Of a stretch of DNA of 20,000 bases, positions 1,348 to 19,926 are shown piece after piece (positions within the stretch are counted from its first letter, which is position 1; every line of letters begins with the position of its first letter). A program made the position numbers and the translations under genes. The DNA is from an uncultured virus (IMG/VR IMGVR_UViG_3300035501_001058). Taxonomy: Duplodnaviria > Heunggongvirae > Uroviricota > Caudoviricetes. The notes under the pieces are model-generated. The model did not search any database, had not been told where the DNA came from, and saw only the letters and a program-made list of their open reading frames with translations. Where the stretch lies: the IMG/VR virus record IMGVR_UViG_3300035501_001058, one strand, 5' to 3'.

Positions 1348-1620
1348 TTGAAAGCTATGATTTGTCCAATTTGTAGAGCAGAAAATAGTGATGATAGAAC
1401 ATACTGCTATAATTGTGGTTATAACAAATTGCAGGAAGAAATAAATAAACAATCAGATAATAAACCAATAGATAATCCGAGTATCAATAAAGACAATTCT
1501 TTAATGATTGATCCATCAGATGATACATCTATTGGTACTTTAAATTATGTGGCAATCGTAATTATAGGCTTAATAGTCTTGATTGCATTGGTAGTAGTAA
1601 AGTGTATAGGGCTTTTTTAA
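1348..1620 (+). CDS. Zinc-ribbon protein with C-terminal transmembrane helix
   Basis: CPIC-x10-CYNC, polar linker and hydrophobic C-terminus (YVAIVIIGLIVLIALVVV). GGAGG abuts the TTG, so the true start is probably the ATG at 1357. Confidence 0.8.
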   Translation: MKAMICPICRAENSDDRTYCYNCGYNKLQEEINKQSDNKPIDNPSINKDNSLMIDPSDDTSIGTLNYVAIVIIGLIVLIALVVVKCIGLF

Positions 1621-3275: not shown

Positions 3276-3903
3276 CTCATGCGATGATAATATTTATGAT
3301 GACTTACCTACTGGTATTGTTTATACTGATAATGAAGATAGTGACCCAGGAGATGAATTAGAGAGCTTATCTGATTATGTGGGTGGATATACATCTGTTG
3401 ATTCTGAGGTTTTAGAATTTGATAAAATATCTGGTGTGGGAGACACAACAATACAGCTGGTTAATATTGAGAGAAGATATACAAAATGCGTAATTATTCT
3501 TTATGCCAATGTTAGTGGATTGTTGCATAATTTCACTATTAATTTAGAATATTACGATTCTGAAAATAATAGTTTAGGAATCCTTAATTCTGAACCAGTG
3601 GATTTAATTGGTTGCATGTATAATACCATTATCATTGATTTACCTGATAATGCACAGTCCTTTAGTTTCGCAGGATACAATGCTGATAGTGTGATGGAGA
3701 TTATACAATTAATTTTATATGATTTTGATGATAATCTACAAAGGGAATCTCAAACAACATTTGTATCTAATTATGAGAATGCTAATATTGTTTTTCTCGC
3801 TGATAATAGAGTGGTTGCTATTGAAATGGGGGCAGAAAAGGGACTGATAGTTGAAGGAATGACTGGTATTAATAGATATGGTGTCTTGGAGGTGAAAAAT
3901 TAA
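3223..3903 (+). CDS. Putative lipoprotein with FxLYD-like beta domain
   Basis: MKR + hydrophobic stretch + ISSC lipobox, acidic linker, and INLEYYDSENNSLG resembling the FxLYD motif; GGAGA SD. Confidence 0.7.
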   Translation: MKRILLVVTLVMMLCFISSCDDNIYDDLPTGIVYTDNEDSDPGDELESLSDYVGGYTSVDSEVLEFDKISGVGDTTIQLVNIERRYTKCVIILYANVSGLLHNFTINLEYYDSENNSLGILNSEPVDLIGCMYNTIIIDLPDNAQSFSFAGYNADSVMEIIQLILYDFDDNLQRESQTTFVSNYENANIVFLADNRVVAIEMGAEKGLIVEGMTGINRYGVLEVKN

Positions 3904-6002
3904 TGGACGCAAGTTCTTTTTACAATGCATGGAATAATGCTGTGGCTAATACTAATAAGGCTGATACACATGAAAGAATGGTTGTATTTGATGATTTAGA
4001 TATTGATGATTTTCTAGATGATAGCACAGATAGTTTACCCAAAGATGATACTACATTAAGTGATAATGTGGCCCAAACTCCTGTAAATATTGATACTGCT
4101 AAAAGTAATGATTATGCTATAACAAATTTCATCAAAACAAGTAAGTCAGTTTCTACAGAGAAAATAGCAAAGTTCCCATTGTTTGATGCTATACAGCAAC
4201 TAAGCGATGAATTTGATTATGAATTTAAGAATGATAATGTTTCTTCCCTATTAAAAGGGATAACTGGTCAAGAATATTCTAATGATAAGGCAATAAAAGA
4301 ATGGTTGTTTATGTTTTATGGTATAAAAGATAACGCTGATTTGAATGACAGTATTTTGCAATTCAGTAAAGACGAGTTAGATTCAATTTGTTCAGTAAAT
4401 AGAAATATGCAACTCAGTGAATTGTGCATGATTGCTGATTATAAAAATGATGATAACTTTGATGCGTCTATAATAAAAAAATACTCATTGGAAGCTCGTG
4501 ATACAAGCTTACTACTAGAACTTATGCGTAATTCATTATTAGATGAAGAGGAGCTCATAAATTATGTATTGGATACGGATGTATTTAATTCATATTTGAC
4601 ATTAAAAGTTACAAATAAGTTCAATAAAGAAGATTTTGATATAATTAATGCTCAGTCAATTAATGTAGATAGTTACACTAAATGTTTATTATCTTCGAAT
4701 CCTTGGGCAGAGTTAGGAATTCGTTCAGATTTTAATGAGATATATAAAATGGTCACAGAGAATGATATACCTTATGAGCTGGGTATTACATACAAAGATA
4801 ATAAATGGTTATTGCAAATACTTACAGCTTATGTAAAACATTTTTATAGTGATAAGTTCATAGAGAGATACTTAAATGATTCTAATAAGTTTGCTGAGAA
4901 AATGGCAAATGATTATGCTAACTTAAACATAGACTTAGAAACACTTAATGCTTATGATGGAAACTATTTTTTGGCAAAGGCAGTCGTTGATGTAAAATCT
5001 TTTTCAGATAAAAAATTAGCATTAACCGAAGATTTAGCAATATTTCTAGAAATAATAGTGACAGCTATATGGGAAAATAATATAGCGGAAATCAATTATA
5101 AGGAATTCCTTTTTTGTGTAAGTGAAGGTTCATACCATTTATGTAAGGAATACAACAGATTATTTAAGAAGAAGGGTGCTGTTACATTTAATCAATTTTG
5201 GATTTATAGGATACTTGAAGAATTTGGAATAGATACAACACTTCCAGATGATGTTGGCAGTGTAATTGCATACCAGATTAGTAATGGATTATCTTACTGT
5301 AATGTACAGATGATACATGAGGTTTTAGATAAGTTTGTTAATGCTATAAAGAGTAAAAATTATAATCTTACTGTTAAGTTACTACCTGGACACTCAGGTA
5401 TTCTTATTTGTGATTCATTATATAGTGAGATATCGAGAGAGCGTGCAAGAATACAGAATTTTTGTAATGCATCATGTTCTATTGAAAGTGCCATTAAGTT
5501 GAATGCGAAAAGTAATATTGCCAGATACAATGTAATAAGAGTTATTAATTTAGCTCAATCACAGTCACCTGGTGCTATTTCAGAAAGCTTTAAGCAGTTA
5601 TTAATTTTGAGATCAGAGAGCTATTTATTATTTGATACAGTACTAAGTATTATTGCTGACACATTTAATGAATTTGCTGGGCTGTGCATGTGTTCGGAAG
5701 CAACGCAATGTTTAAAGATATTTAATAACGCGCTATTACAAAAAAATAGATTTTGCATACAAGCTGAGTTCTTAAAGACTTATTTGACACTTAAGTTTGG
5801 GAATCGTATTAAATTTGATAGATATGACCCAGATTCCGTAGACAGTATTAGTATTATAGAAATAAGCAATTCTTACATTTATGGATCTGTTTCAATTTTT
5901 AATGTATTGGCATCTCTTGATAATTTCACTACAGAATTAAATAAGCATAGTAGGATTATTTGTAGATTTAATGAAAATACTGTTAGATTTGAAGGAGTTT
6001 AA
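3903..6002 (+). CDS. Hypothetical protein, 699 aa, acidic disordered N-terminus
   Basis: Long ORF, TAATG-coupled to the upstream gene, GGAGGTG SD; no family recognised. Confidence 0.8.
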   Translation: MDASSFYNAWNNAVANTNKADTHERMVVFDDLDIDDFLDDSTDSLPKDDTTLSDNVAQTPVNIDTAKSNDYAITNFIKTSKSVSTEKIAKFPLFDAIQQLSDEFDYEFKNDNVSSLLKGITGQEYSNDKAIKEWLFMFYGIKDNADLNDSILQFSKDELDSICSVNRNMQLSELCMIADYKNDDNFDASIIKKYSLEARDTSLLLELMRNSLLDEEELINYVLDTDVFNSYLTLKVTNKFNKEDFDIINAQSINVDSYTKCLLSSNPWAELGIRSDFNEIYKMVTENDIPYELGITYKDNKWLLQILTAYVKHFYSDKFIERYLNDSNKFAEKMANDYANLNIDLETLNAYDGNYFLAKAVVDVKSFSDKKLALTEDLAIFLEIIVTAIWENNIAEINYKEFLFCVSEGSYHLCKEYNRLFKKKGAVTFNQFWIYRILEEFGIDTTLPDDVGSVIAYQISNGLSYCNVQMIHEVLDKFVNAIKSKNYNLTVKLLPGHSGILICDSLYSEISRERARIQNFCNASCSIESAIKLNAKSNIARYNVIRVINLAQSQSPGAISESFKQLLILRSESYLLFDTVLSIIADTFNEFAGLCMCSEATQCLKIFNNALLQKNRFCIQAEFLKTYLTLKFGNRIKFDRYDPDSVDSISIIEISNSYIYGSVSIFNVLASLDNFTTELNKHSRIICRFNENTVRFEGV

Positions 6003-6446
6003 ATGGAAGAATTACATGTATTTGATGATTTATACAGTGCTGAGGAACAGCAGGAAATTAAAATAGATGAATCTCTTGCATCTACTTTCTCAGATATAAA
6101 GCAAAAATTGATAGAAGGAAAATATAGCTACGCAAAAGATTATTTAAAAAATGCAACCTCTGTAGAAGAAATTGTCATTACAGCTGCAGCATACAGAATT
6201 GGGGAAGAATATGCTGCAGCACTACAAGACGATTTAGACATTGAGGAAAAGAAAGTTGCGTTATTTGGTTTTAAAAATGAATTAAACGTCATTGAGCAAA
6301 TAAAAGGTGGCGAAGCATTACCTGATTTAGTTACTTTAATAGAAGCTTCAAAAATTCCAGGATTTGAGTTGATGAGTTTTTTCGATGAAACGGGTTCTTA
6401 TATCAATTATCCAAAGATTAGAAAATTCATACAAGAAAATTCATAA
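6003..6446 (+). CDS. Hypothetical acidic protein, 147 aa
   Basis: AAGGAG SD; ATG directly follows the upstream TAA. Confidence 0.8.
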   Translation: MEELHVFDDLYSAEEQQEIKIDESLASTFSDIKQKLIEGKYSYAKDYLKNATSVEEIVITAAAYRIGEEYAAALQDDLDIEEKKVALFGFKNELNVIEQIKGGEALPDLVTLIEASKIPGFELMSFFDETGSYINYPKIRKFIQENS

Positions 6447-6502
6447 TAAAGAGGAAATTAAAAATAAAAATGTACATAAATGTCTTAAAACACAGGAGGT
6501 TT

Positions 6503-7150
6503 ATGTACATGACAAATGAGGAAATTCAATTAATTAAAGAAATTAAACAGGGTAACTTAGAAGCAAGCTATGATTTATTAACAGTAAATCATAGCTTTTT
6601 GGTTAATTTGTATCGAAAATTGCATGTATACGGATACTATTATGAAGAATTTGAAATGATTTGTTATGAGGCTTTAATTAAAGCAGCAAATCATGCTGAC
6701 CTGACAAAAGGTTATTGTTTTAATGCTTACTGGAAAAAATATATTTTACATGAATATCTTTTAGAGAAGATACAGCTACAATATGCATTTTCCTTAACTA
6801 CTGCAGAATACAGTACAGCAAAAAGAGATAATGTTGATTTAATTAATAACTATTACAGAAGATCTACCAGTAAACAGGAAGGTCTTATTATTAATGATGT
6901 ATATGAGTGTGTATTTCAGGCAGAGTTGCGTAAATTGGTATGGATAGAAGTAAGTAAAACGGTCACTAATGAAAATGCTTATATTTTATGGGAGCTATTT
7001 AGTAAAAATAGAACTTTAACCTCATTAGCACAAGAGTTACATATTGGCACTGATAGGGTTAGAATGCGTAAGATTAGGAGTTTAAAAAAGTTAAAAGAGA
7101 ATAAAAAATTAAGAGAGTTAGCATATGACTATTATGGAATATTATGCTGA
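6503..7150 (+). CDS. RNA polymerase sigma-70 family factor (alternative sigma)
   Basis: TNEEIQLIKEIKQGNLEASYDLL and ALIKAA...FNAYWKKYI (region 2); RTLTSLAQELHIGTDRVRMRKIRSLKKLK (region 4 HTH). AGGAGG SD places the start at 6503 (or 6509), not 6470. Confidence 0.85.
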   Translation: MYMTNEEIQLIKEIKQGNLEASYDLLTVNHSFLVNLYRKLHVYGYYYEEFEMICYEALIKAANHADLTKGYCFNAYWKKYILHEYLLEKIQLQYAFSLTTAEYSTAKRDNVDLINNYYRRSTSKQEGLIINDVYECVFQAELRKLVWIEVSKTVTNENAYILWELFSKNRTLTSLAQELHIGTDRVRMRKIRSLKKLKENKKLRELAYDYYGILC

Positions 7151-7168
7151 CTAAAGGAGGTATAAGAT

Positions 7169-7639
7169 TTGATAGCAAATGACGTAATGCAATATTTTTT
7201 GGAACAATGTTCTTCAATATCTAGAAATTATTATAGAGATTTGGGGAAAATCAATTCATCAACGGATGAAGATATTGACAGAATATTGCAACTGCAAAGT
7301 TATTATGGCACACAGCTTGAAGCTGTGGCTAATATAATCTTAGAGGAAAACATGACAGAAGAATACTTGAAGAAAGGTAATATTATTGAGATGTCTAATG
7401 GTAATGTAGAATACATAGATGAAAGTATGAAGACCTATGTAATGAATAATACGGAAATCTTAAAACGAAAAGGTTTAATAGATGTGTGCGATATCAATAC
7501 TGAGTGCTTAGTTTGTGGACGCAGAATACTTGGTATCGGTTTACAAGATGACTCTGATGCAGGATATGCTATTTGCTTCTCTTGTATAACAGAGGAAAAT
7601 TATGTTGGTGGTGGTTGTAATTTTAAAGTATTTAAGTAA
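7169..7639 (+). CDS. Hypothetical protein with C-terminal C4 zinc finger
   Basis: AAGGAGGT SD before TTG; CLVC...CFSC pair. Confidence 0.7.
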   Translation: MIANDVMQYFLEQCSSISRNYYRDLGKINSSTDEDIDRILQLQSYYGTQLEAVANIILEENMTEEYLKKGNIIEMSNGNVEYIDESMKTYVMNNTEILKRKGLIDVCDINTECLVCGRRILGIGLQDDSDAGYAICFSCITEENYVGGGCNFKVFK

Positions 7640-7838
7640 ATTTATAATAATTATAGGTATAACTGCGTGCTTAACCGGATGCAGAGAAATTAATTATTTT
7701 GAAGATACAACAGAGACTACCACTGTTGTAGATGATGAAGTAACTAGTGAGGAGAAATCAACTGTTCATGTCGATATTTTTCCTCAAAGTGTTTATGACT
7801 ATGATGTAAAGGATACTATTTTGGTTCCTAAAGAGTAA
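7602..7838 (+). CDS. Small putative lipoprotein
   Basis: KFIIIIGITACLTGC lipobox and T/E-rich linker; exact start uncertain. Confidence 0.6.
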   Translation: MLVVVVILKYLSKFIIIIGITACLTGCREINYFEDTTETTTVVDDEVTSEEKSTVHVDIFPQSVYDYDVKDTILVPKE

Positions 7839-7850
7839 AGGAGTGAGTAA

Positions 7851-9845
7851 ATGGGTGAATTAAAAGAGATGAATCTTTTCTCTTCTAATGCAGACGCTAA
7901 ACCATCTTTTGATGAAGCATATGAACAATTTTGTCGAGAGCTGGGGTTGGATTACAGATATAATAAATTAAGATGTAAGGCTTTTGATAAATACCTACTA
8001 GAATTATTTAGCCAAGGAAATTTATTACATAATCCGGATTTAGATAAATTGGTTAAGGAATCATTTTCTTCATATCAAGAAGAATTTGATGTTAAGTATA
8101 GCAACTGCTGGGCAATTGCTAAATGTTTAGAAGCTGGTGCAGATTTGCATAAAATTATGACTAGTGGTAGCTTGCGTGCAGAAGCAGTTATAGAGGCAAT
8201 TAGTCTTGATAGTACAGTTGATATCAATTTAGCAATTGATATACAGAAAGTTCTCAACATAAATAATGAATTTGAGAAAATCGTGAAAATGATAACAGGA
8301 AATAGTTATCGAAAGAAAAATTCATATGGATACACATTACTAACAGTGTACAATCTTATAAAAAGTTATCCAGAGGTGCAAGCTCATTTAGACTCGTGGA
8401 GTGATAATTATTGTCTTGTGATTATAGGAAATTATTTACAAGAAGGTATAGCATACTACGAAGCAATTCAACGTGTTGATAGATACAAAGGTAAAAAATA
8501 TTCTTGGCAACTAGCTAAATTAATGGATATAAAATTCCCAAATGATAATGTATTACCTAAAAACACAGATTTATTTGAGATAGTAGCGCAAAATGAAATA
8601 AAATACTGTAATAGTTTACAGGAATTAGAGGCTAGATTTACTAGCTTACAAGAATTGTTACATAAAGATAATGCTACAATTACAGCCAAAGATATTAGTG
8701 ATGTTGCTTCTGTATACGAGACAGGTTTTTCCATTGGTAAATTAATGGAGATGTATCCTGAGATAAGAGAATCTATTGCTATACAAAAGTTTATTTCATT
8801 GTGCAAATTAGCACGTTCAATTATTGACAGAAATTCTATAAGTAGTTCTATGCATAGAAGAGACACTACAGGACTGTATAGTGAATATGTTTTTGGTGGA
8901 GAAATAGTAAAGGTATATAAACCGGAACTGCTTTTCGATCTATTCAGGCATGTTATTGATAACCTTTCTACTGAAGCTATAGGAAATTTTAGTAAAGTAG
9001 ATTATGTTTCTTATTATGTAGAAAATTGGATAAATGGTATTTCTGGAACAGTGATGTGCTTACAAGATAAAAGTGAAGTAAAAGCTATACTATCTAGAAA
9101 TTTTTCAGAAGTACAAATAGCATACAATGGAAGAATTATGAATCATTTTCCAGCAGATTTCTTTATTGAATACGGTGAAGAAGTTATCTTTTGGGTAAAG
9201 AAGAATAGACCTAAGTATTTCATAATTAAGCATGAATTTGTAACACAAAAATCTGATATTGATAAAACTGCTGATAATCTAGTCATAGATTTTAGCGATA
9301 ATAATGATTTAGGATACGTGTTACATGAATGCTGTTTAGGTTTATCTGTAGACTTTGCTACTAAAAAGAGAACTGTTCTTGAAAGTGGATATAGATTGGG
9401 TACTCCGTACTATAAAATATTGTTAAAGAACTATTTTAAGGAGCATGGACAAGATTACAATGAGATAGAAACTTTTGATGTTCAGACTGTTGTTGGTATG
9501 ATACAAGCTTTAATTTTACAAAAGTCTAGTGAATACGAAGAGCTATTTAAGAAACATGATGTTTTTGTTGCAGTGATGCGTGGTCTTAAATGGTGTATTA
9601 GAAATGATGATAATTTATACAGTGCAGTAGTGCGATATGCTCTATTAGCTGCAGGTATCAATAGTAGATACACACGATGTAGGATTAGCCCTACTTTAAG
9701 CAGTACATTAGTTATTGATGATAAACAATATCCTATTTTGCAGTGTTTGACTAACAATAATAAGATAATTGAGTTTTTAAAAACAAACAGAGATTTTCTA
9801 CAAATAGAATTGATAGGGGATCAAATACATGTTAAGGGTGCATAG
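7851..9845 (+). CDS. Hypothetical protein, 664 aa
   Basis: AAGGAG SD; long ORF; no family recognised. Confidence 0.8.
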   Translation: MGELKEMNLFSSNADAKPSFDEAYEQFCRELGLDYRYNKLRCKAFDKYLLELFSQGNLLHNPDLDKLVKESFSSYQEEFDVKYSNCWAIAKCLEAGADLHKIMTSGSLRAEAVIEAISLDSTVDINLAIDIQKVLNINNEFEKIVKMITGNSYRKKNSYGYTLLTVYNLIKSYPEVQAHLDSWSDNYCLVIIGNYLQEGIAYYEAIQRVDRYKGKKYSWQLAKLMDIKFPNDNVLPKNTDLFEIVAQNEIKYCNSLQELEARFTSLQELLHKDNATITAKDISDVASVYETGFSIGKLMEMYPEIRESIAIQKFISLCKLARSIIDRNSISSSMHRRDTTGLYSEYVFGGEIVKVYKPELLFDLFRHVIDNLSTEAIGNFSKVDYVSYYVENWINGISGTVMCLQDKSEVKAILSRNFSEVQIAYNGRIMNHFPADFFIEYGEEVIFWVKKNRPKYFIIKHEFVTQKSDIDKTADNLVIDFSDNNDLGYVLHECCLGLSVDFATKKRTVLESGYRLGTPYYKILLKNYFKEHGQDYNEIETFDVQTVVGMIQALILQKSSEYEELFKKHDVFVAVMRGLKWCIRNDDNLYSAVVRYALLAAGINSRYTRCRISPTLSSTLVIDDKQYPILQCLTNNNKIIEFLKTNRDFLQIELIGDQIHVKGA

Positions 9846-11037
9846 ATTTGCTCTCGCTATAGCTCTGTGCAGTTTATTAACTGGCTGTACTAAGCAAACT
9901 GAGCCGGTAGATGTTGCAACAAATACAACAGAAGTTGTTGCAACATCAGGTGATGCAACAACCGAGCAAGGTGTTCATTATGATATTTTTGAAAATAATC
10001 CTGTTGTGTTTGATTCTAATGTACAAATTCCTATTATGAAAGATTCCCAGATATCAGGTTGGTTAAACATAAATTATGTAGAAAAACTTGGTATTTGGGA
10101 TATCAATAATAAATCTGCAACAGATAATGGTGTAAAATTCAGTTATGCTATAAATTACTCTATTGATTTAACAGAATATCTGGAAGCAAATGAATTAATA
10201 GAAGTTAAAGTGACTCCTAAATTATACGATAATGCAAATAATTTAGTTGGCTCTGTCGGATACGTAGGTTGGTCTGGCTTCACTGATACAGTTAGTTTAT
10301 ACAAGAGTAAAGCCTCTGGTTATGCTGAAGTAGTTTTACAACCATACGATAAAGACATAAATAATTATAAATCATTAGTATTAGAAATAGCTGATCTAAA
10401 TGGTGAAGTACAATTTGATGATGTATACATAGATGTAGGTTGTCTGTTAAATGCAAAAGATGGTCCAAGCATAATGACATTAGACGATACAGCAACTATA
10501 GAAAGTATTAATGGTGCTATTTATACTATTAGTTTTCGTGATGTTTATTATGAACTAAATGATGTAAGCAACACTAAATTAGGTGATGATAAAATGGATT
10601 ATTTTTATGACTTTACTTGTATAGTATCATATAAGCAACAGCCAACTAATGATATAGAGGTTACTACTTTTGACTCTTTTAATAATTTTGCAATGATAAA
10701 AATGCCATTAATTGAAGTCTTTAGTGATACAGATAGCACTAAGCTTTATAATGTGGTTGAAGGTGTAAAGCGCTATGTATACAGTGATAGCAACGATTTA
10801 GAAGAATACTTAACTGAGTTTCCTAGTGCTCTTGATGTAGGATACAGGGCCATAGTTAGTCAAAATAGAATTGTTCCAGAAACGACTGTTGAAGAGCCTA
10901 CTTATATAAGGATAGTTCTACAATTTCCCGAAGAAATAAAATCAAGAAGCTACTCAGAAATATCAGAATTTTCTGGTCGATATCTCGTTTGGCAATTGCC
11001 TTTATCTACACGAAGTCTGGAGGCGAAACCAAAATGA
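9829..11037 (+). CDS. Putative lipoprotein, 402 aa
   Basis: LAIALCSLLTGC lipobox, T-rich linker, beta-rich body including PKLYDNANNLVG (FxLYD-like). Confidence 0.8.
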   Translation: MLRVHRFALAIALCSLLTGCTKQTEPVDVATNTTEVVATSGDATTEQGVHYDIFENNPVVFDSNVQIPIMKDSQISGWLNINYVEKLGIWDINNKSATDNGVKFSYAINYSIDLTEYLEANELIEVKVTPKLYDNANNLVGSVGYVGWSGFTDTVSLYKSKASGYAEVVLQPYDKDINNYKSLVLEIADLNGEVQFDDVYIDVGCLLNAKDGPSIMTLDDTATIESINGAIYTISFRDVYYELNDVSNTKLGDDKMDYFYDFTCIVSYKQQPTNDIEVTTFDSFNNFAMIKMPLIEVFSDTDSTKLYNVVEGVKRYVYSDSNDLEEYLTEFPSALDVGYRAIVSQNRIVPETTVEEPTYIRIVLQFPEEIKSRSYSEISEFSGRYLVWQLPLSTRSLEAKPK

Positions 11038-12035
11038 AAAAGATAATATTGATAGCTATACTGATACTGTGTACTGCATGTAGCTCTAATAACTTTAGTT
11101 ATGATAATTCATTGAAAGCACTTGTTGAAGAATATAACAAAGACGGCACCGTAGCAACCGACGAATTAGAAACTTTGATGCTAGATAAATCTAGCAGTTA
11201 TAAAAAATTAATAAGGTCATTAAAGCAAAGTGCACAGATAGTTGATTATGCATCAGATGGTACTTCTATCAAATGTCAAGTAAGTTTTATTGGATATGAA
11301 AATGCCTGTAATTTGATGGCAAGTGATAAGTCTGGATTTGTGCACGATATTAGAAATTTAAAAAGTCTTGATATGTCAATGGAAGACTTACAAGAATATG
11401 CTTATGATTATTTATACCTACTTATTGATAAATGTAACACTGCTACATATGAAGTTACATTAAGCCTGACTCAGTGTACTAATGCTCCATTCGAGTTTAG
11501 TTCTAATAAGCCAATTATTGAAATTATTGAGACAGAAGTAGATAAAATAGTATACGATAGTATACAAATGGCATTAGAGGTTTCTGATGATGAAGAGACT
11601 TCTAATAATAAAATTGAATATCGAAAGATGGAAGTTGGTAAATCTTACTTGCTTAATTATGCAGTAGATGATAAAACCACTGTACCAGTTATACTTACTA
11701 TTAAGTCTTTACAGACTGGTGAAGATGCAGTAAATGCAATAAATGATTTAAGTATAACTAATAGTTCTCTGATTAGTAGTAATGTCTGCTATCTTGAATA
11801 TGAAGTCTATAATTGTAGCAATCAAGATATTATTTTTAGCGATAAATTTTATGATGCAGATATTTCACTATGTAATTTATTTATAGACGATACAAAATAT
11901 GTTGGATTAAATAAGACTTGTAATATTAATGCTGGCTCAACCACTATGATAAATAGTATATCCAAGATGAATCACGATGGTTTAGTATGGTATGATAGTC
12001 AAGCTTCTGAGTTGTACCTTCTAAACTATAAATAA
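11034..12035 (+). CDS. Putative lipoprotein, 333 aa, possible DUF4352-like C-terminal domain
   Basis: GGAGG SD and ATGA overlap give the start MKKIILIAILILCTAC (lipobox). The C-terminal VILTIKSLQTGEDAVNAI...YLEYEVYN pattern is the basis for the tentative domain call. Confidence 0.75.
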   Translation: MKKIILIAILILCTACSSNNFSYDNSLKALVEEYNKDGTVATDELETLMLDKSSSYKKLIRSLKQSAQIVDYASDGTSIKCQVSFIGYENACNLMASDKSGFVHDIRNLKSLDMSMEDLQEYAYDYLYLLIDKCNTATYEVTLSLTQCTNAPFEFSSNKPIIEIIETEVDKIVYDSIQMALEVSDDEETSNNKIEYRKMEVGKSYLLNYAVDDKTTVPVILTIKSLQTGEDAVNAINDLSITNSSLISSNVCYLEYEVYNCSNQDIIFSDKFYDADISLCNLFIDDTKYVGLNKTCNINAGSTTMINSISKMNHDGLVWYDSQASELYLLNYK

Positions 12036-12051
12036 ATTCTAGGAGGTACTT

Positions 12052-12843
12052 ATGAGTACAATATTAATTTTTATAGATGCAGAGAATATGTCAAAATCGC
12101 AGGCATTGAAAGCATATGAGGAAGCTAAGAGAATGTCTTCACCAGAAGATATTATACTTGGTAAATTTTATGGTGTTAAAGAGAATCTTGGTGACCTTGT
12201 ACAATTTTATTTATCTTTGGGTTTTGAATTTGTTGACACTAGTATTTATGCAGAACAGAAAAAGAATTTAACGGATATGAAGATAATCACAGATACAGTT
12301 TTTGATATAGTCAACGTATTTCCAAATGAGTTAAAAGCTGTTTTTATCTTGAGTAATGATTGCGACTTTAATCCGTTAATTTGCAAATTGAAAGCATACA
12401 ACACACAGGTAATTGGTGCTTCTTCTTTTTTATTTGGGTCTATAGACTCAGTAGATGCATTAGCAAGTTATTTAAAGATTCAAAGATTTACACCTGCATC
12501 AGTACATACTATTAATAATGTACTATATGATAGTATAGTTGATTTAACAAGAGATATGTTATTAGATGATACGTTAATTATTAAATTTTTGCGTACAAGA
12601 ATAAATAAGTTAGCAAGTGCAACTTTAGCTAAATACAGATATGCTATGAGAGAATTGTCTGATGATGAAATTAGACAATTCTCTTTTGCTTCATACAACA
12701 ACTTACTAGAACAAGCAGGATACTGTAACGTGGAAGAAAATTTAAAGTTATTTACTAACAAGATGTTTGGTTCAACTTTAGATAAAAACGGAGTTGCACA
12801 AGTAGTAATGAAGATTAGAGGTGATAATAATGCAATTAACTGA
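12052..12843 (+). CDS. NYN-domain (LabA/DUF88, PIN-like) putative ribonuclease
   Basis: IFIDAEN, KKNLTDMKIITD and LSNDCDFNPL acidic motifs; AGGAGG SD; extra C-terminal domain of about 130 aa. Confidence 0.88.
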   Translation: MSTILIFIDAENMSKSQALKAYEEAKRMSSPEDIILGKFYGVKENLGDLVQFYLSLGFEFVDTSIYAEQKKNLTDMKIITDTVFDIVNVFPNELKAVFILSNDCDFNPLICKLKAYNTQVIGASSFLFGSIDSVDALASYLKIQRFTPASVHTINNVLYDSIVDLTRDMLLDDTLIIKFLRTRINKLASATLAKYRYAMRELSDDEIRQFSFASYNNLLEQAGYCNVEENLKLFTNKMFGSTLDKNGVAQVVMKIRGDNNAIN

Positions 12844-13840
12844 TGCTAATTTTTTAGGAGATATTAAATCTGATAAAGAAACGCCTAAGGAAGAGAAAGT
12901 ATTATCACAGGCGGATACTAATTTTTTGGAAGAGTTTGATACTGTATCTATTGTAACCGTTGATAAAGATGATACAACAGTAAAATCAGATACTGCTGTA
13001 ATTAATAAAAATTCTGAGGATAAGATAGAAGAGCAAGAGCTAGAAAAAAAGTTAATTGAGCAACCTCTAGAAGAATTGGAATTTGATGCTGATGCTATCG
13101 AGAAAAAGAAAGAAACATCAGAAACATCACAGCAAGTAAACAGTACAGCAGATGAATCTACACAACTTAGTGAATTAAGTACATATGAAAAGTTGTGCTC
13201 AACTGCAGCAATACTTGATGATAAAGCTGAAGATGCTTTTTCGAGAGTGAAACAGAAAGCGAGTATTCTTGCTAACAGCGCTTTAGCAGTTTTTAATAAT
13301 AATAAAAATCTTAAAGTGTTTGAAAACGGTAAATTAGTCATTTGTGGAGATTTTGAATTTTTGCTACATAAAGATGAATTAATGTTATTGAAATACACCG
13401 GCATGAGTTCTAGAGTTATTTGTCCGGATGAAGTTGGTGGAAAACCTGTGAGATATATACATTCTAATGCTTTTAAAATTGGTCATTTTAATGGTACTAA
13501 TAAAATTAAAGCAGTGTTTAGGGTACTCAAGAATGAAGATATACTATTACATGATGTAGATAGTTTGAAATATGCTGCTATGCAAATAACATACTTGCAA
13601 TTGCCAGTTGGTTTACAGTTTATACCAAATGATTTATTTAGATTTTGTCCAGGACTATACTCTATAGAGATACCACAAAGTGTAGTTAGTATAGCCCCGG
13701 CAGCGTTTAATAATAGCAAACTTAATACAATTTTCTTTAGTAATAATTGTGTTAAAAATATGAAGTTTGTTAAATTTCAAGAAAATACCAGGTTATTTGT
13801 AAAGAAAAATGTCGTTCGTTCTTACAGGGTGGTGAGCTAA
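12830..13840 (+). CDS. BspA/TpLRR-type leucine-rich repeat protein with acidic N-terminal region
   Basis: PDEVGGKPVRYIHSNAF, LQLPVGLQFIPNDLFRFCPGL and SIEIPQSVVSIAPAAFNNSKL repeats; GAGGTGA SD favours the ATG at 12830. Confidence 0.8.
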   Translation: MQLTDANFLGDIKSDKETPKEEKVLSQADTNFLEEFDTVSIVTVDKDDTTVKSDTAVINKNSEDKIEEQELEKKLIEQPLEELEFDADAIEKKKETSETSQQVNSTADESTQLSELSTYEKLCSTAAILDDKAEDAFSRVKQKASILANSALAVFNNNKNLKVFENGKLVICGDFEFLLHKDELMLLKYTGMSSRVICPDEVGGKPVRYIHSNAFKIGHFNGTNKIKAVFRVLKNEDILLHDVDSLKYAAMQITYLQLPVGLQFIPNDLFRFCPGLYSIEIPQSVVSIAPAAFNNSKLNTIFFSNNCVKNMKFVKFQENTRLFVKKNVVRSYRVVS

Positions 13841-14193
13841 TGAGTGAAAAACTTGTAAAGGTACTTTGGAAAGTAGACATAGTAATAGTACTAGTTAAAT
13901 TTGTTTTGGCTTGGATCAGTACATTAGGAGATATTACTTTTAGTAAGATATGGAATAAGAAACTCAGTGTTCTCTTTGATGTGCAATCTATCAAGACTAT
14001 AATGTTTCAACGCAATCTAACTTTTTGGATAATACTTGCTTTAGTCAATGTTCTAATAATCGGTATGTGGTTATTATCTTCTAATGGTAAAAAGCAAAAA
14101 GAAGACACTGCAGAAACAAAAGTAATTATTGTGCCACAAAACAATGATAGTACTGTAAAACAGCATGAAGAAACAGAAATGAAAGTATTCTAG
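13840..14193 (+). CDS. Small membrane protein (2 TM) with polar tail
   Basis: Two hydrophobic segments, TAATG coupling, tail ending EMKVF. Confidence 0.75.
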   Translation: MSEKLVKVLWKVDIVIVLVKFVLAWISTLGDITFSKIWNKKLSVLFDVQSIKTIMFQRNLTFWIILALVNVLIIGMWLLSSNGKKQKEDTAETKVIIVPQNNDSTVKQHEETEMKVF

Positions 14194-14204
14194 GGGGAAT
14201 AGAA

Positions 14205-14585
14205 ATGAATAAAGTACAATCGCTCTTTTTACTTATAATTATTGATGCAATAGTACTAGTGTACTGTTTCAAAGCAACTATAACCTTATTGATTTTACCA
14301 GACAAGTTAGTTACGTGGTTATTCGATAAAGTCTTTAAAACCTTAGATATGGGTAGTACCACAATGGTTGTAGCTGCAGCAGAAGCAGCGTCCCATAAGA
14401 CTAGTTTGATAGTTTTATTAATAGTAAATATTCTAGTAATAGTTTTTAAATTATTAGCCTCAAAAGGCAGAAAAAGATCCAAATCAAATGGCACTAAGCA
14501 GTTATTAACTACTGTAAATAATGCACAGACTACTTCTGTTGAGCCGGATTTAGCAGAACGAAATAAAGATCTTAATGTTTTTTAA
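14205..14585 (+). CDS. Small membrane protein (2 TM) with polar tail
   Basis: AGGGGG SD, two hydrophobic segments, tail ending DLNVF. Confidence 0.75.
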   Translation: MNKVQSLFLLIIIDAIVLVYCFKATITLLILPDKLVTWLFDKVFKTLDMGSTTMVVAAAEAASHKTSLIVLLIVNILVIVFKLLASKGRKRSKSNGTKQLLTTVNNAQTTSVEPDLAERNKDLNVF

Positions 14586-14587
14586 TC

Positions 14588-14622
14588 AAATTCTAGTGGT
14601 GTAGTAGCCACTAGAATTTTTT
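14588..14622 (+). terminator. Strong Rho-independent terminator-like hairpin
   Basis: AAATTCTAGTGGT-gtagta-GCCACTAGAATTT followed by TTT, immediately after the stop codon. Confidence 0.8.
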
Positions 14623-14634
14623 AGGAGGTAAATT

Positions 14635-15033
14635 ATGTTGGTTTATAGTCCAGATGATGTAATGAAAATGAATAGTGCTAATGCAATTATTACAAAATAT
14701 AATCATAGTCACAGAGTAAAGGCTATTTATTTTATGGCGCTAGGGTTGGATAGATTTATACCAGAACTATGGTTTAAACGTTTGCTCTTTAGTGAAGATA
14801 GCGAAGAATATGTTGGATACATGGATTATTATTTAGATCCATGTGCAAATTTTACATGCAGGATAATGGATATTGAATTAGATGATTGTAGTAAAACCGA
14901 TATTGAAGAATTAGAAATTTATCTAAGACAGTATGGTACAACAATACAATTCTTAATAAAAGATGAAAGAGATAAAAGGCTAGCATCGATATTTTCGGAT
15001 GCAGTAGAAAAGATTTATAAGGAGGATTTATAA
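14635..15033 (+). CDS. Hypothetical protein, 132 aa
   Basis: AGGAGGT SD; ORF. Confidence 0.75.
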   Translation: MLVYSPDDVMKMNSANAIITKYNHSHRVKAIYFMALGLDRFIPELWFKRLLFSEDSEEYVGYMDYYLDPCANFTCRIMDIELDDCSKTDIEELEIYLRQYGTTIQFLIKDERDKRLASIFSDAVEKIYKEDL

Positions 15034-15034
15034 A

Positions 15035-15457
15035 ATGGTAGTTTATTATGTTAATAAAAATAGTTTAGGTGTTGAAGTTTTCAATGGTATAAATGATTTG
15101 CTCAATAATGTAGATAATAGAGATACATTAAAAAATGCAGATTTAATGAGTTTGCGCTCAGGAGAATTATTTATAGAGAGGATTAATAGTGTCGAGCAGC
15201 TTAAAGAGTTTGTTTTGCAGATACCAGCTAAAAGTAAGGATTTTGATTTAGAGGTATACAGAGAACCAATGCAGACATTTATAGGTAAAGAAGCTGTTAT
15301 TAACAAGATTAAAGAAAAATATGATATTGATGATGGGCTTATAAATGAAATGTTATTTATTATGAAGCCGGATTGTTTTTATGGTTTGTTATCTAAACGA
15401 GAATTTAACGAGGAACTTGATACTGTACATAATATGGTGCTTCAGGAGGTAGAATAA
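15035..15457 (+). CDS. Hypothetical protein, 140 aa
   Basis: AAGGAGG SD; TAATG-coupled to rnz. Confidence 0.75.
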   Translation: MVVYYVNKNSLGVEVFNGINDLLNNVDNRDTLKNADLMSLRSGELFIERINSVEQLKEFVLQIPAKSKDFDLEVYREPMQTFIGKEAVINKIKEKYDIDDGLINEMLFIMKPDCFYGLLSKREFNEELDTVHNMVLQEVE

Positions 15458-16365
15458 TGATTTCTGTTTCTATACTTGGTACTAGTGGTATGACACCGTT
15501 ACCAAATAGGCATTTAAGCTCATGTGTCTTTAGACATGATGGTGTACAGTTTTTAATTGATTGTGGGGAAGGCACACAGGTAGCTTTAAAAGAGGCAGGA
15601 TATAGTTTAAAGAAGATTGATTATATCCTTTTAACTCATTATCATACAGATCATGTTGGAGGCTTGGCAGGTTTATTGGCTAGTATGGCTAATAGTGAAA
15701 AGGATAATACAGTTACCATAATAGGTCCTAAAGGTTTAAATCGAGTGGTAAATGCTGTAAAGAGCTTAGTGTCTAAATTACCATTCACCATAAAAACTAT
15801 TGAAATAGTTGATGAAGATGTAGTCTTAGAGTTAAATGGACTTAAGATAACACCTTTTTCTGTAGAACATAAGATTCCTTGCTTTGGATACAAAGTTATA
15901 CTGCCAAGAGAGGGCAAATGCTTACCAGAAAAGGCAGCTAGTAATGATGTTCCAATAGAGATTTGGAGTGAATTACAGCATAATAAAGTTGTTGAACGTG
16001 ATGGTAGAATTTTTACAAAAGATTTAATTATGACAGATGCAAGAAAAGAAATTAAGTTTGTTTACACTACTGACACAAGACCTTGTAATAATATTGTGGA
16101 AGCAGCAAAAAATGCAGACCTGTTTGTGTGTGAGGGTATGTATGGTGATTATGAACAAATAACGAAAGCAAAGAAGAATTATCACATGATGATGCAGGAA
16201 GCAGCAGAGATTGCATCAAAAGCCGGACCAGCAAAATTAGTTCTTACTCATTATAGCCCAAGTATGGTAAAACCTGAACAATACTTAAGTGAATTACGGT
16301 ATGTATTTAATAAGGTAGAAATGGGTTATGACGGTTACACAGTTGAGTTAGATTATGAGAAGTAG
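15457..16365 (+). CDS. rnz: Ribonuclease Z (tRNA 3'-processing metallo-beta-lactamase)
   Basis: LGTSGMTPLPNR, LIDCGEGTQ, THYHTDH (HxHxDH), EHKIPCFGY, exosite-length insertion, YTTDTRP, CEGMY and LTHYS motifs. Confidence 0.93.
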   Translation: MISVSILGTSGMTPLPNRHLSSCVFRHDGVQFLIDCGEGTQVALKEAGYSLKKIDYILLTHYHTDHVGGLAGLLASMANSEKDNTVTIIGPKGLNRVVNAVKSLVSKLPFTIKTIEIVDEDVVLELNGLKITPFSVEHKIPCFGYKVILPREGKCLPEKAASNDVPIEIWSELQHNKVVERDGRIFTKDLIMTDARKEIKFVYTTDTRPCNNIVEAAKNADLFVCEGMYGDYEQITKAKKNYHMMMQEAAEIASKAGPAKLVLTHYSPSMVKPEQYLSELRYVFNKVEMGYDGYTVELDYEK

Positions 16366-16382
16366 ATTGTGGGGGTGCTACT

Positions 16383-16937
16383 ATGAAGAATGAATTTGCG
16401 AAGACTCGTGAAGAGGAATTAGCTGAAGCTTTAAATAAGGAAAAAAAGAAACAGGCAACTAAGAAAATCATAGGTGCCGTAGTTGCTTTAATACTAGCAA
16501 TACTTTATTGTCCACTTCCTGACCCTTTACCCGGACCTGTAGATGATGCATCATTTCTAGGTGTAGCCTCTATATATTTGGTATACGCTATTCATTATGC
16601 AAGAAATGTTGCAGCCACATTAGTTGTCACTACACAATTAGTAAATCAGGCAGATAAGTCCATAGAAAATGCAACAGCAACAGCTAAAAGTGCTGTAGGG
16701 GTAACTAATAATGTTAAGGATATTGCAGTATCATTTAAAGATGCTGATTCTATTGATGAATTAGAAAAAAGAAAGCTGGCTGTGGATAATAGTATACAAG
16801 AAACTCAGAATAGATTTGAGAGCACCAAGCAATCTTTAGCAGAAACGCAAGAGATGTTTAATAGTTTAAAAAATAATAGAAAGACTAATGAGAGCGTAGA
16901 TAGTCTAGATACAATTCACACTCTAGATACATTTTAA
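16383..16937 (+). CDS. DUF1232/YkvA-like membrane protein with coiled-coil tail
   Basis: TM segment, LYCPLPDPLPGPVDD re-entrant motif, second TM, then coiled coil ending TLDTF. Confidence 0.65.
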   Translation: MKNEFAKTREEELAEALNKEKKKQATKKIIGAVVALILAILYCPLPDPLPGPVDDASFLGVASIYLVYAIHYARNVAATLVVTTQLVNQADKSIENATATAKSAVGVTNNVKDIAVSFKDADSIDELEKRKLAVDNSIQETQNRFESTKQSLAETQEMFNSLKNNRKTNESVDSLDTIHTLDTF

Positions 16938-16954
16938 TTGAAAGGAGATCAGCT

Positions 16955-17296
16955 ATGAAAGTTTCAAAAGAAGTGGAATATAAAAATTCTGTGGTAACTA
17001 TGCACTTGATGACTAAAAATGGTGGAGAAGAAGTTATAAAATGTGCTAAGATTTCATACTATGTTGATGACAATTTAATTGTACAAGGTAGTGGTGAAAT
17101 AATGATAAACAGAAGAGATAACTATCCTAAGATACATATAAAACAGCCAGATACTGGAGATTACACAGAGGATTTCCAGGAAAATTCTTGCATATTTTCT
17201 GAATTGGATGATGGTATTGTGAGAATAGAAACAAAGTATGTGCCAAAGTTCTTAGGTCATGAGATAAATGTCAAGGTTATAATTGTGACCTGTTAG
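16955..17296 (+). CDS. Hypothetical beta-rich protein, 113 aa
   Basis: AAAGGAG SD; ORF. Confidence 0.75.
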   Translation: MKVSKEVEYKNSVVTMHLMTKNGGEEVIKCAKISYYVDDNLIVQGSGEIMINRRDNYPKIHIKQPDTGDYTEDFQENSCIFSELDDGIVRIETKYVPKFLGHEINVKVIIVTC

Positions 17297-17304
17297 GAGG
17301 GCTC

Positions 17305-17790
17305 ATGCATTTTTGGTTTTTAGATGTAAGATTAGAAGATAATTACACCAGTAAGTTGTGTGACGATAATAAAATACAGCAGGATATACAAATCTTAATT
17401 GGGCATCAGTTGTGCAGTAAATGTGCTTCTGATGCCCAATTTACTTTATTAGAGTTGCAAGGATTACAGCGATATTTGATACAGGCAGATTTACCTATAA
17501 CCAGCTTGGACTCTAGGCATGTATATAATGAGCAAGTATTCTGCGAGAATCGTAATTTTTATTATGTTATGTTCAATGACACATGGCTGATTATAAGAGG
17601 TTTACATGATAGTTTTTCAATTAGATATGACTATGATTACACAAAAGAGAATGGTTGTTTAATTATAAAAAATCTCTTAGATGAAGACGCTAGTACAGAT
17701 AGCATTAATAAAACAATTGATAAGATAGTCACTCGATATATCGGAAAATATAGAAAGATCGCAGAAAGTAAATATTTGAAGATTTTTTAA
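17305..17790 (+). CDS. Hypothetical protein, 161 aa
   Basis: AGGAGG SD; ORF. Confidence 0.75.
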   Translation: MHFWFLDVRLEDNYTSKLCDDNKIQQDIQILIGHQLCSKCASDAQFTLLELQGLQRYLIQADLPITSLDSRHVYNEQVFCENRNFYYVMFNDTWLIIRGLHDSFSIRYDYDYTKENGCLIIKNLLDEDASTDSINKTIDKIVTRYIGKYRKIAESKYLKIF

Positions 17791-17808
17791 TATAGGAGGT
17801 ATTTACAA

Positions 17809-17910
17809 ATGCTTTATGTAAAAGCGTTAATACTAGCTTCGTTAATATCAGGGATATTAACTATTGCTACAATCATTACGCTAATTTGCATGATAATAAT
17901 ATCGAAATAA
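17809..17910 (+). CDS. 33-aa single-TM peptide (absent from ORF track)
   Basis: AGGAGGT SD, then MLYVKALILASLISGILTIATIITLICMIIISK*; fills the intergenic gap. Confidence 0.7.
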   Translation: MLYVKALILASLISGILTIATIITLICMIIISK

Positions 17911-17938
17911 AAATAATAGCAAGATCGGAGGAAACATA

Positions 17939-18571
17939 ATGAAAAGTCCGAGTTCAGAAAAAGTTGTTCAGTTTTTAATTGATAAAGGGTTTACAAGAGG
18001 TAATGCTTATCTAATTGTTGATTGCATAAGAGAGAATTTAGACATTAATGAATTAGCTAATCCAGACTATGACTATAGCCAGATAAAAGAAATAGCAGAT
18101 GGAATGTCTAAAGGGATAGAATATCAATTATATGCTAACATTGAATACTCAGGTGCTCAGATGCAGGTAATAAAAAATGCTTTGCTTGCAGGACAAGATG
18201 TTGCATGCATACTTAATCCTGAATACTCTGCAGTTTTAATGAAAATAATACTTGAATGTAATAGTATCAATTGTGACTATAGAATATTCATTGATAATCC
18301 AATTTTAATAGGACATTATAATACAATACTTCCATACTTAGTAAATAATGATATAGAAGATTTTTCTTGGGTCACAGCTGAGATGTCTGATGATGACGTT
18401 AAGTGTATTTGTAGCGCAAAGGAATCCGGCATCTACAGAGAAGAATTACTATTATTAACAGGCTGGAGCTTACAAGATAGAGTGAACCAATTAAAATTGG
18501 AAGAACAAGATCGAGCACTTTTTAGTCCTGAAAGGTTACGAAAGTTCGATATATTTAGTGACTTTAAATAG
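17939..18571 (+). CDS. Hypothetical protein with ~26-aa helical repeats
   Basis: LANPDYDYSQIKEI / YANIEYSGAQMQVI / ILNPEYSAVLMKII repeats; GGAGG SD. Confidence 0.8.
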   Translation: MKSPSSEKVVQFLIDKGFTRGNAYLIVDCIRENLDINELANPDYDYSQIKEIADGMSKGIEYQLYANIEYSGAQMQVIKNALLAGQDVACILNPEYSAVLMKIILECNSINCDYRIFIDNPILIGHYNTILPYLVNNDIEDFSWVTAEMSDDDVKCICSAKESGIYREELLLLTGWSLQDRVNQLKLEEQDRALFSPERLRKFDIFSDFK

Positions 18572-18618
18572 AGTAAATAGTGTTCCGCTTTTTACATTAA
18601 TAGTGTAGGAGGTGTATT

Positions 18619-19833
18619 ATGGATAAAAATGAATTATTGCAATTTGCAGTTGATAATGATATGATTGACATGGCATCACTAGAAAAAATGATAGCCATGA
18701 ATGAGAAAACTAAATATTTAAATATGCATAAATATAAAATCTGGTCCAATGCTTCTGGGCAGTGGTATACATATTTGCCAGACGCAAATCGTAACAATAA
18801 TAGACGCTTAGTAAAGAAATCATCTGAAGCTACTCTGATTAATACTATAGTTAAGTACTATAAAGAACAAGAAAAACGAATAACTATTACTGATGTTTTT
18901 TATGAATGGATTACAAATAAATTGCGATATGGAGAAATCAAGAAACAGTCTTATGATAGATACATAACGGATTTTAATAGATTCTTTGGTAATAAAAAGA
19001 TTAGTGAAATGGATTTTTCTCATATTTCTGAGGGCATATTAGAGGACTTTATAAAAACATCTATTAAGGAAAATGAGTTGACTGCTAAATCTTGGAGTGG
19101 TCTGAGGTTAATAATACGTGGTGTATTTAAGTATGGTAAGAAGCACGGTTATACTCAGATAAGTATAACAAATTTTCTTGGGGATTTAGATCTCTCTAAT
19201 AATACTTTCAAGAAAACACATCATAAAAGTACTGAATCAGTTTTTACAGATAACGAGATTTTACAGATAACTAATTATGTTCTAGAGCATGCAGATAATG
19301 TTGTTAATTTAGGCGTTTTATTAGCATTCCAGACTGGTTTACGAGTAGGTGAGCTTAGTGCTCTGTGCTGGTCTGATGTTGATGGTGATATCTTACATGT
19401 TAATAAAACGGAAGTCCATTATAGAGACGAAGATAACAAATACGTATACGAAGTTCAAAAATTTGCTAAAACAGATGCTGGTGATAGAGATGTCCTGCTT
19501 TCTGATTCTGCAAAAGCAATCTTAGATAATATTAAGAGGTTGGGTAAAACAGATAAGTATATATTTATGCGAAATGGAGAACGTATAAAAGAGAAAGCTT
19601 TTAGTGTTAAAATTGTAAAAATCTGTAATCAATTAGGCATAACGCCTCGTTCTTTACATAAGGTTAGAAAAACATATGCTACAAAATTGATAAATTCAGG
19701 AGTAGACGAAAGTTTAATTATCAATCAAATAGGGCATACTGATATTTCGACGACAAAGCAGTTTTACTATTTTAATAATAAAACTAAAGAAGAAGCTAAA
19801 AAACAAATACAAGATGCTATAGAGTTTAAGTAA
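18619..19833 (+). CDS. int: Tyrosine recombinase / phage-type integrase
   Basis: TGLRVGEL (R), KTDAG (K), LHKVRKT (HxxR), IGHTD (H) and TTKQFY (Y); N-terminal arm-binding-like and core-binding regions; 404 aa. Confidence 0.96.
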   Translation: MDKNELLQFAVDNDMIDMASLEKMIAMNEKTKYLNMHKYKIWSNASGQWYTYLPDANRNNNRRLVKKSSEATLINTIVKYYKEQEKRITITDVFYEWITNKLRYGEIKKQSYDRYITDFNRFFGNKKISEMDFSHISEGILEDFIKTSIKENELTAKSWSGLRLIIRGVFKYGKKHGYTQISITNFLGDLDLSNNTFKKTHHKSTESVFTDNEILQITNYVLEHADNVVNLGVLLAFQTGLRVGELSALCWSDVDGDILHVNKTEVHYRDEDNKYVYEVQKFAKTDAGDRDVLLSDSAKAILDNIKRLGKTDKYIFMRNGERIKEKAFSVKIVKICNQLGITPRSLHKVRKTYATKLINSGVDESLIINQIGHTDISTTKQFYYFNNKTKEEAKKQIQDAIEFK

Positions 19834-19895: not shown

Positions 19896-19926
19896 TGCCG
19901 AGAGTTCGATTCTCTCATCCCCTGCT
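19896..19926 (+). mobile_element. att core: 3' fragment of a tRNA, probably tRNA-Trp
   Basis: GAGAG-TTCGATT-CTCTC T-arm, ATCCCCT acceptor strand and G discriminator; the CCCCTG end is typical of Firmicute tRNA-Trp. No 5' half upstream; about 60 bp from the int stop. Confidence 0.85.

Follow-up and report, generated by a model that had tools for sequence, protein, structure and literature searches.

A phenylalanine-tipped C-terminal tail on three protein lineages of a tRNA-Trp genomic island: a candidate docking peptide

The stretch of DNA analyzed here (the window throughout: 20,000 nucleotides from an uncultured virus, IMG/VR record IMGVR_UViG_3300035501_001058) carries 25 genes, all on the + strand, and appears from its sequence to belong to an island, made up mostly of ORFan genes, that is integrated at tRNA-Trp of a Lachnospiraceae-like host. 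Four of its proteins, which fall into three lineages, end exactly in [LM]-x-[VIT]-F, with phenylalanine as the last residue. The analyses described below partly support the view that this Phe-tipped tail is statistically unusual and that it is conserved where it can be compared. Our tentative reading is that it may be a C-terminal docking peptide, displayed by all three lineages to one common cytoplasmic partner, with coincidence nearly as likely an explanation. The four genes, all of which lie within 13840-17790, are listed first, followed by a fifth gene with a product that also ends in phenylalanine.

13840..14193, + strand: 117-residue protein with two predicted transmembrane (TM) segments and a polar tail of ~40 residues; C-terminal MKVF (codons 14179-14190).
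14205..14585, + strand: 126-residue protein with two predicted TM segments and a 41-residue tail that starts basic; C-terminal LNVF (codons 14571-14582), with a terminator-like hairpin after the gene.
16383..16937, + strand: 184-residue membrane protein with a long polar tail; C-terminal LDTF (codons 16923-16934).
17305..17790, + strand: 161-residue soluble protein; C-terminal LKIF (codons 17776-17787).
1348..1620, + strand: 90-residue zinc-ribbon protein with a C-terminal TM anchor; C-terminal IGLF (codons 1606-1617).

The fifth protein was absent from the preliminary description of the window, and the context of its IGLF ending is different, because its phenylalanine closes the TM segment and a terminator hairpin overlaps the stop codon. 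The proteins of 13840-14193 and 14205-14585 are weak paralogues (BLASTP 2.6e-4; phmmer 2.4e-6), whereas no similarity was found between any other pair of motif bearers; the earlier statement that the bearers are unrelated therefore holds for every pair but this one. The 13840-14193 protein matches no family in Pfam, PHROG or NCBIfam, and in Pfam the tail of 16383-16937 gives just weak matches, to alpha-helical families. The clustering of the three lineages in 8 of the 25 genes has a p of ~0.24 by a hand estimate, and is not used as evidence.

The frequency of the motif was compared with that in chromosomal controls taken from 122 loci around tRNA-Trp in gut Firmicutes (953 kb). One control set comprised 777 non-overlapping open reading frames (ORFs) of at least 100 residues, including 216 from loci with less than 33% guanine plus cytosine (GC); the other, prepared using a second ORF caller with a limit of at least 75 residues, combined 877 chromosomal ORFs with 224 from six phage or fecal phage contigs, giving 1101. 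The exact C-terminal motif is present in 4/25 window proteins, compared to 2/777 controls and 0/216 in the low-GC subset (Fisher 1.1e-5, or 2.3e-4 with the paralogues merged), and four such ends were reached by 0/3000 within-protein shuffles (mean 0.05). With the second ORF caller it was found in 4/24 window proteins, 2/224 phage-contig ORFs and 3/877 chromosomal ORFs (5/1101 overall), and when proteins of at most 200 residues are considered the counts are 4/13 for the window and 0/233 for the controls. Proteins that end in phenylalanine, whatever precedes it, are likewise over-represented (5/25 versus 28/777, P = 0.0025). A DNA-level cause was considered and rejected as unlikely: TTY stands before only 4.8% of the + strand stop triplets, and a search for a DNA motif at the gene ends found nothing in common beyond TTT-TAA.

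Conservation could be followed in the 17305-17790 protein, the sole motif bearer with homologues in a HMMER search. These form three distant clusters (P0004, 1.1e-10; P0005, 9.6e-7; P0006, 3.1e-6), with 24-32% identity to the window protein in that search and 23-28% in the alignment. In place of the LKIF of the window they end in LEAFNE (P0004), MEMF (P0005) and MKAF (P0006), so that all three clusters keep [LM]-x-[AM]-F, at the end or two residues before it, and these ends are kept by all 15 of their members. The phenylalanine, which occupies one of 15 invariant columns, ends the protein in 3/4 lineages, with two more residues after it in the fourth, and the -3 position is always L or M (4/4 lineages). 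The ~12 residues upstream of the motif, conversely, are unalignable among the homologues, and one lineage has a proline there. The preliminary description had proposed to look for a motif that is conserved while its flanking linker diverges, and in this family that is what was found. The paralogue pair may provide a second, weaker case: the two proteins are 24% identical and differ in tail length, and they keep the final VF in a stretch of 34 alignment columns that otherwise contains few identities.

Two further observations concern the 17305-17790 family. Its public protein record (P0003) begins at an internal Met and covers no more than the C-terminal 73 residues, which is the reason that a word-index search with the 17305-17790 protein matched nothing; the full 161-residue form is the real gene, as the alignment with homologues of 158-164 residues starts at residue 1. 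Furthermore, one 233-residue member of the P0004 cluster (P0008) consists of a DUF1232 membrane module (E 6.5e-11) fused in frame to a homologue of 17305-17790. The window offers a parallel in 16383-16937, which lies two genes upstream of 17305-17790 and is faintly DUF1232-like: its residues 29-61 give a weak pairwise alignment with the DUF1232 part of P0008 (E 0.11), and Pfam gave no PF06803 (DUF1232) match for it even at E up to 10. There may be a conserved functional link between DUF1232-like proteins and the 17305-17790 family.

Hydropathy analysis gives two TM segments followed by a tail of ~40 residues for each of the paralogues, and for 16383-16937 one clear TM segment, with a long polar tail behind it. 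Beyond the last TM segment, the tails are ~40 to 137 residues long, polar, and start with K/R-rich stretches; because of these stretches, and following the positive-inside rule, the tails of the membrane proteins are probably cytoplasmic. No hydrophobic (signal-peptide-like) segment is predicted in 17305-17790. The AlphaFold model of this protein, which was computed from 13 sequences (predicted local distance difference test score, pLDDT, 70.8; predicted template modeling score, pTM, 0.68), contains five strands and a helix, residues 132-160, that runs to the end of the chain, with a pLDDT of 68 over residues 151-160 and of 42 at F161. According to ideal-helix geometry, the directions of L158 and F161 differ by ~150 degrees from that of the hydrophobic face formed by residues 132-150, a rough geometric argument that they would not continue the face that packs on the sheet. 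Foldseek returned no match to the fold at E <=0.001 in either the PDB or BFVD, and the ESM Atlas yielded nothing of use for either 16383-16937 or 3903-6002.

In the mechanism that we propose, the tail would take the form [LM]-x-[VIT]-F-COOH, with A or M as the third residue in homologues, and would be carried by the two-TM paralogue pair, by the membrane protein of 16383-16937 and by the soluble protein of 17305-17790. The L or M side chain, the -1 residue, the phenylalanine ring and the free carboxylate would be inserted together into a hydrophobic groove on the partner. This partner would be cytoplasmic, because the membrane tails follow K/R-rich stretches and the soluble bearer has no signal-like hydrophobic segment. 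The candidates for it are, in order, a protein encoded by the element itself, an AAA+ unfoldase or protease (for which the tail could be either a tether or a degron) and the sliding clamp.

The preliminary description had gone further, and proposed an element-wide signal on about nine proteins and at both termini. All nine of its motif strings are present where it placed them, and the enzymes it named do lack the motif at their ends, but the signal shrinks to the four genes (three independent lineages) described above. The other five instances are as follows.

3903..6002, + strand: 699-residue ORFan; MVVF at residues 26-29 (nucleotides 3978-3989), in an acidic N-terminal stretch.
6003..6446, + strand: 147-residue acidic protein; LHVF at residues 4-7 (nucleotides 6012-6023).
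7851..9845, + strand: 664-residue ORFan; MNLF at residues 7-10 (nucleotides 7869-7880).
7169..7639, + strand: 156-residue protein, Cys-rich at the C-terminus; FKVF (nucleotides 7622-7633) followed by one last residue, in a gene with an end that overlaps the next lipoprotein gene.
17939..18571, + strand: 210-residue protein; FDIF four residues from the end (nucleotides 18545-18556).

All five of these, three N-terminal and two near-terminal (NFKVFK and FDIFSDFK), are most likely due to chance. Within the first 31 residues the motif occurs in 3/25 window proteins, 66/777 controls and 21/216 of the low-GC subset (Fisher 0.37; shuffle mean 1.7, P = 0.23), so the N-terminal half of the motif class is at chance level and the terminal enrichment expected by the preliminary description stands for the exact C-terminus only. 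The two near-terminal cases are weak and add little. The adjacent genes 3903-6002 and 6003-6446 also have the 5-mer VFDDL in common, and an N-terminal pair of this kind is produced by 25-28% of shuffles.

Several considerations weigh against a docking function for the tail. No partner was found, and the contexts in which the motif occurs are heterogeneous, comprising membrane tails, the end of a helix and, for IGLF, the end of a TM segment. The sample is tiny, with just three independent lineages, and one of them, 16383-16937, has no homologue in which conservation could be followed (only itself was found among 5.8 billion proteins). The LKIF of 17305-17790 closes a long predicted helix, and because of this its conservation could reflect folding and not docking. 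No related element in which the tail count could be repeated was found in the collections described below. Finally, the motif was defined post hoc, in a window that is one of very many, which would bring in a look-elsewhere effect, and for these reasons the enrichment alone cannot carry the claim. When the residue classes are chosen freely (any three residues at -3, any four at -1 and any last residue), a terminal pattern with at least four members is found in 63-87% of random 25-protein sets, most of these patterns being K-ending. In a minimum-p test that searches this pattern space, 0.3% of random sets do as well as the window (P = 0.003) with the five F-ending proteins counted, and 9.8% of them do (P = 0.098) when one paralogue is dropped.

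Much of this is what coincidence, which we consider almost as probable as docking, would lead one to expect: the L/I/K/F-rich proteins of an AT-rich island would have come to similar ends by chance in three lineages with no common partner, the paralogues being alike by descent and the 17305-17790 family keeping its end as a helix cap, for oligomerization or for core packing. A motif defined after the data had been seen, the ease with which random sets yield some terminal pattern, the corrected P of 0.098 and the position of LKIF at a helix end all speak for it, as do the same ending in 5/1101 control ORFs and the N-terminal and near-terminal members, which are at or near chance. It accounts less readily for the strength of the nominal enrichment, for the corrected P of 0.003 with all five F-ending proteins, for the retention of the terminal motif in two separate families while the adjoining tail diverges, or for the fact that L158 and F161 are not in register with the side of the helix that packs. 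The docking tag for a common hub that was originally suggested is partly supported in its C-terminal form, by enrichment and by conservation, and no hub was identified.

The remaining alternatives assign the tails to particular host proteins. It is unlikely that a two-terminus motif, approximately [DE][LM]x[VLI]F, tethers to the host beta clamp both the membrane proteins, by C-terminal copies, and the large ORFans, by the N-terminal copies in 6003-6446 and 7851-9845. Exploratory counts do favor a clustering at the ends: the pattern occurs 5 times in 6373 residues, compared to 1.5e-4 per residue in the controls; 4/5 occurrences are within 10 residues of an end, whereas 0/4000 shuffles reach three at ends; and the controls contain it in 0/1101 cases within the first 10 residues and 2/1101 within the last 10. 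The near-consensus clamp motifs at both termini of phage Mu MuC and Mor (PMC12867686) are consistent with such an arrangement. Conversely, the pattern was refined a second time post hoc, its two C-terminal members are paralogues, LDTF and LKIF lie outside it, the consensus Q is absent from all nine instances, the N-termini of the controls depend on guessed start codons, and the original motif shows no clear excess in the first 10 residues (2/25 in the window versus 30/1101 in the controls). We know of no precedent for a clamp partner of membrane-anchored tails. A complex prediction that combined the 41-residue tail of 14205-14585 with a DnaN dimer of a host-like genome (L143) counts neither for nor against the clamp (score 0.01, mark 0.34, in a run without controls). 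Comparably improbable is a 'toolbelt' in the style of T4 and Mu, in which [LM]xΦF-COOH, together with an N-terminal [DE][LM]x[VL]F on two large ORFans, would tether membrane-anchored and soluble ORFan proteins to one host hub, a ring or AAA+ protein such as the sliding clamp or ClpX/FtsH; if true, integrative elements of Gram-positive gut anaerobes would have a recruitment code that has not been described for them before. Less likely still, the non-polar end of a cytoplasmic tail might be a degron that marks its bearer for FtsH, ClpXP or Lon, making the membrane proteins short-lived. The ~40 to 137-residue, presumably cytoplasmic tails with a non-polar end would suit this role, and non-polar C-terminal tails do act as protease signals in ssrA-type tags and FtsH substrates, but the motif is unlike LAA-type ends, and a degron would not predict a strictly conserved terminal phenylalanine.

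Whatever its tails may bind, the element that encodes them can be placed more closely. The window probably represents the right-hand 20 kb of an island in tRNA-Trp, on account of the integrase and tRNA 3' fragment at its right end and of matches to host loci.

18619..19833, + strand: tyrosine integrase of the island (Pfam Phage_integrase 1.9e-19; PHROG 1, 1.9e-41).
~19896..19925, + strand: 3' fragment of tRNA-Trp, the attachment-site copy (23-mer match), with a host-type terminator after it.

ARAGORN found no intact tRNA in the window. The 23-mer of the fragment equals the 3' end of tRNA-Trp(CCA) in three loci (L038, L050 and L023), and fragment and terminator together match L038, which is titled Coprococcus sp., with 93% identity over 58 nt, and a locus titled Lachnospiraceae with 87% over 75 nt. 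On the basis of one short match, the host is probably Lachnospiraceae-like. The GC content is 27-34% per kb of the window (~30% for the island), lower than the ~39-40% of the best flank-matching loci, so that the island combines a tyrosine integrase beside a tRNA 3' fragment with a GC content unlike that of its host, as is expected for a tRNA-integrated genomic island. The first 48 bases of the window have no match in the metagenome contig collection. Integrases of 41% identity occur in two places, at 8646-9881 of a locus titled Blautia (L025) and at 14805-15989 of a fecal phage contig (L127, MT835477), and the former adjoins a tRNA-Trp 3' fragment at 10001-10023. The cargo of both is unrelated to that of the island and has no such Phe tails; that of L025 includes a replication-initiator-like and a P-loop protein, as judged by reading ORF translations only. 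The integrase lineage thus seems to be tied to tRNA-Trp and its cargo to be variable.

Only seven products of the window match a family in Pfam, PHROG or NCBIfam: an isochorismatase, a zinc ribbon, a weak sigma-70 region 4, a NYN protein, a BspA-type leucine-rich-repeat protein, a full-length RNase Z and the integrase. The sigma-70-like protein, encoded at 6470-7150 amid the large ORFans, is divergent (region 4 E 3e-4; PHROG sigma factor 1.8e-5, all matches being under the curated cut-offs) and has no Phe tail. The RNase Z at 15457-16365 is full-length (NCBIfam NF000801, 337 bits versus a cut-off of 252); its protein is 42-45% identical to the chromosomal RNase Z in nine genomes of the host-like genus, its gene is the only sizeable segment of the island with DNA similarity (~70%) to those genomes, and it gives sub-cut-off scores against anti-Pycsar Apyc1 and cyclic-nucleotide phosphodiesterase models. 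Four predicted lipoproteins, with a signal peptide that ends at a Cys, are found among the large ORFans (3223-3903, 7602-7838, 9829-11037 and 10989-12035), and they are alike over their first 60-65 residues in two pairs, 7602-7838 with 9829-11037 (E 2e-4) and 3223-3903 with 10989-12035 (E 0.02). Terminator-like hairpins with T runs at 1606-1640 and 14586-14630, at or just past the stops of 1348-1620 and 14205-14585, suggest that the gene array is transcribed in more than one unit. An additional hydrophobic ORF of 33 residues (17809-17910), with a good ribosome-binding site (TAGGAGG), lies within the 148 nt that separate 17305-17790 from the next gene; its product ends in ISK and not in the motif.

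Searches for relatives of the island covered genomes, contigs and proteins. The 664-residue ORFan of 7851-9845 has no related locus in the genome contig and viral contig collections, and a megablast of 3900-18600 against phages and plasmids found no relative. Among the same 5.8 billion proteins in which 16383-16937 found only itself, 7851-9845 also gave a self-match only and 17305-17790 gave no match. For 3903-6002, the search of 301 genomes of the family returned no relative, its one weak match being non-syntenic and in a region of 49% GC. The DNA of the window matched 24 genomes of the host-like genus in the RNase Z gene and in one 42-base segment (566-607, E 7.5e-4), and nowhere else. The alignment of the 17305-17790 family detected no locus in the viral contigs, in 401 genomes of the order, in 5 low-GC Bacilli genomes or in 399 genomes of the class, and tblastn with the homologue P0012 detected none in phages and plasmids. 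The sole metagenome-contig locus returned by single homologue searches (L126) was discarded, as it is a phage tail-sheath gene that matches the search pattern only. A profile of the paralogue pair gave 24 weak matches in 401 genomes of the family, four of which were inspected and are unrelated single-TM proteins. In the literature, a narrow search found no paper on such a tail in Firmicutes island proteins.

As nearly every gene of the island is an ORFan, homology cannot reveal the function of the island, and a docking peptide common to several of its proteins would, if real, provide an experimental handle that links these ORFans to one partner or pathway. If the tails are instead a coincidence, they serve as a warning of how readily AT-rich genomes give rise to short hydrophobic patterns at protein ends.

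Phe-ending or hydrophobic C-terminal peptides that recruit partners are known from several systems. The C-terminal tail of single-stranded DNA-binding protein (SSB) is a flexible, Phe-ending peptide in which an acidic run finishes in I-P-F. The preliminary description compared the island motif to it, a likeness that fails on inspection: there is no proline at -1 in any instance and no acidic run just before the end of the island tails, and no SSB or OB-fold family match was obtained for any bearer in Pfam, PHROG or NCBIfam. Class II ligands of PDZ domains are hydrophobic at positions 0 and -2, whereas the four proteins with the exact C-terminal motif have K, N, D and K at -2. In adaptor or degron tails of the SspB type (which binds ClpX) or the ssrA type, the peptide that docks on an AAA+ unfoldase is short, hydrophobic or basic, and forms the very tip of a disordered tail, but these ends do not finish in F, and to our knowledge Firmicutes lack SspB.

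The motif resembles the consensus for binding to the bacterial beta clamp, QL[SD]LF, more closely. PMC12867686 describes this consensus as one that may sit at either terminus, and Mu MuC and Mor, as noted above, carry near-consensus forms at both. MKVF, LNVF and LKIF agree with it at three positions, with L or M at 2, a hydrophobic residue at 4 and F at 5, and LDTF agrees in part, with T at position 4. They differ in that the C-terminal set has V, I or T, and not L, at position 4, and in that position 1 is never Q (0/9): it is E or D in four instances and R, T, Y, N or K in the others. As the Q is never present, we do not class the island motif as clamp-binding.

The nearest analogue is the C-terminal clamp-binding epitope of phage T4. 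According to PMC2988020, T4 gp43, gp55 and gp33 have in common a hydrophobic-acidic C-terminal tail that binds the sliding clamp; the linkers in front of the tails are unstructured and vary in both length and sequence, and homologues keep the motif. The island departs from this model in several respects. No clamp or other hub was identified for its tails; their bearers are membrane proteins and a small protein without a known fold, compared to the polymerase and sigma-type factors of T4, and the sigma-like protein of the island itself (6470-7150) is without the tail; and the setting is an integrase island in a Gram-positive gut anaerobe, not a lytic phage. The likeness lies in the arrangement: three lineages without detectable mutual similarity end in [LM]x[VIT]F, and the motif is kept while the linker diverges, both in the 17305-17790 family (4/4 lineages) and in the paralogue pair. 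If the tails do dock on one partner, the strategy of many clients on one hub that is used by T4 and Mu would extend to integrative elements of gut Firmicutes.

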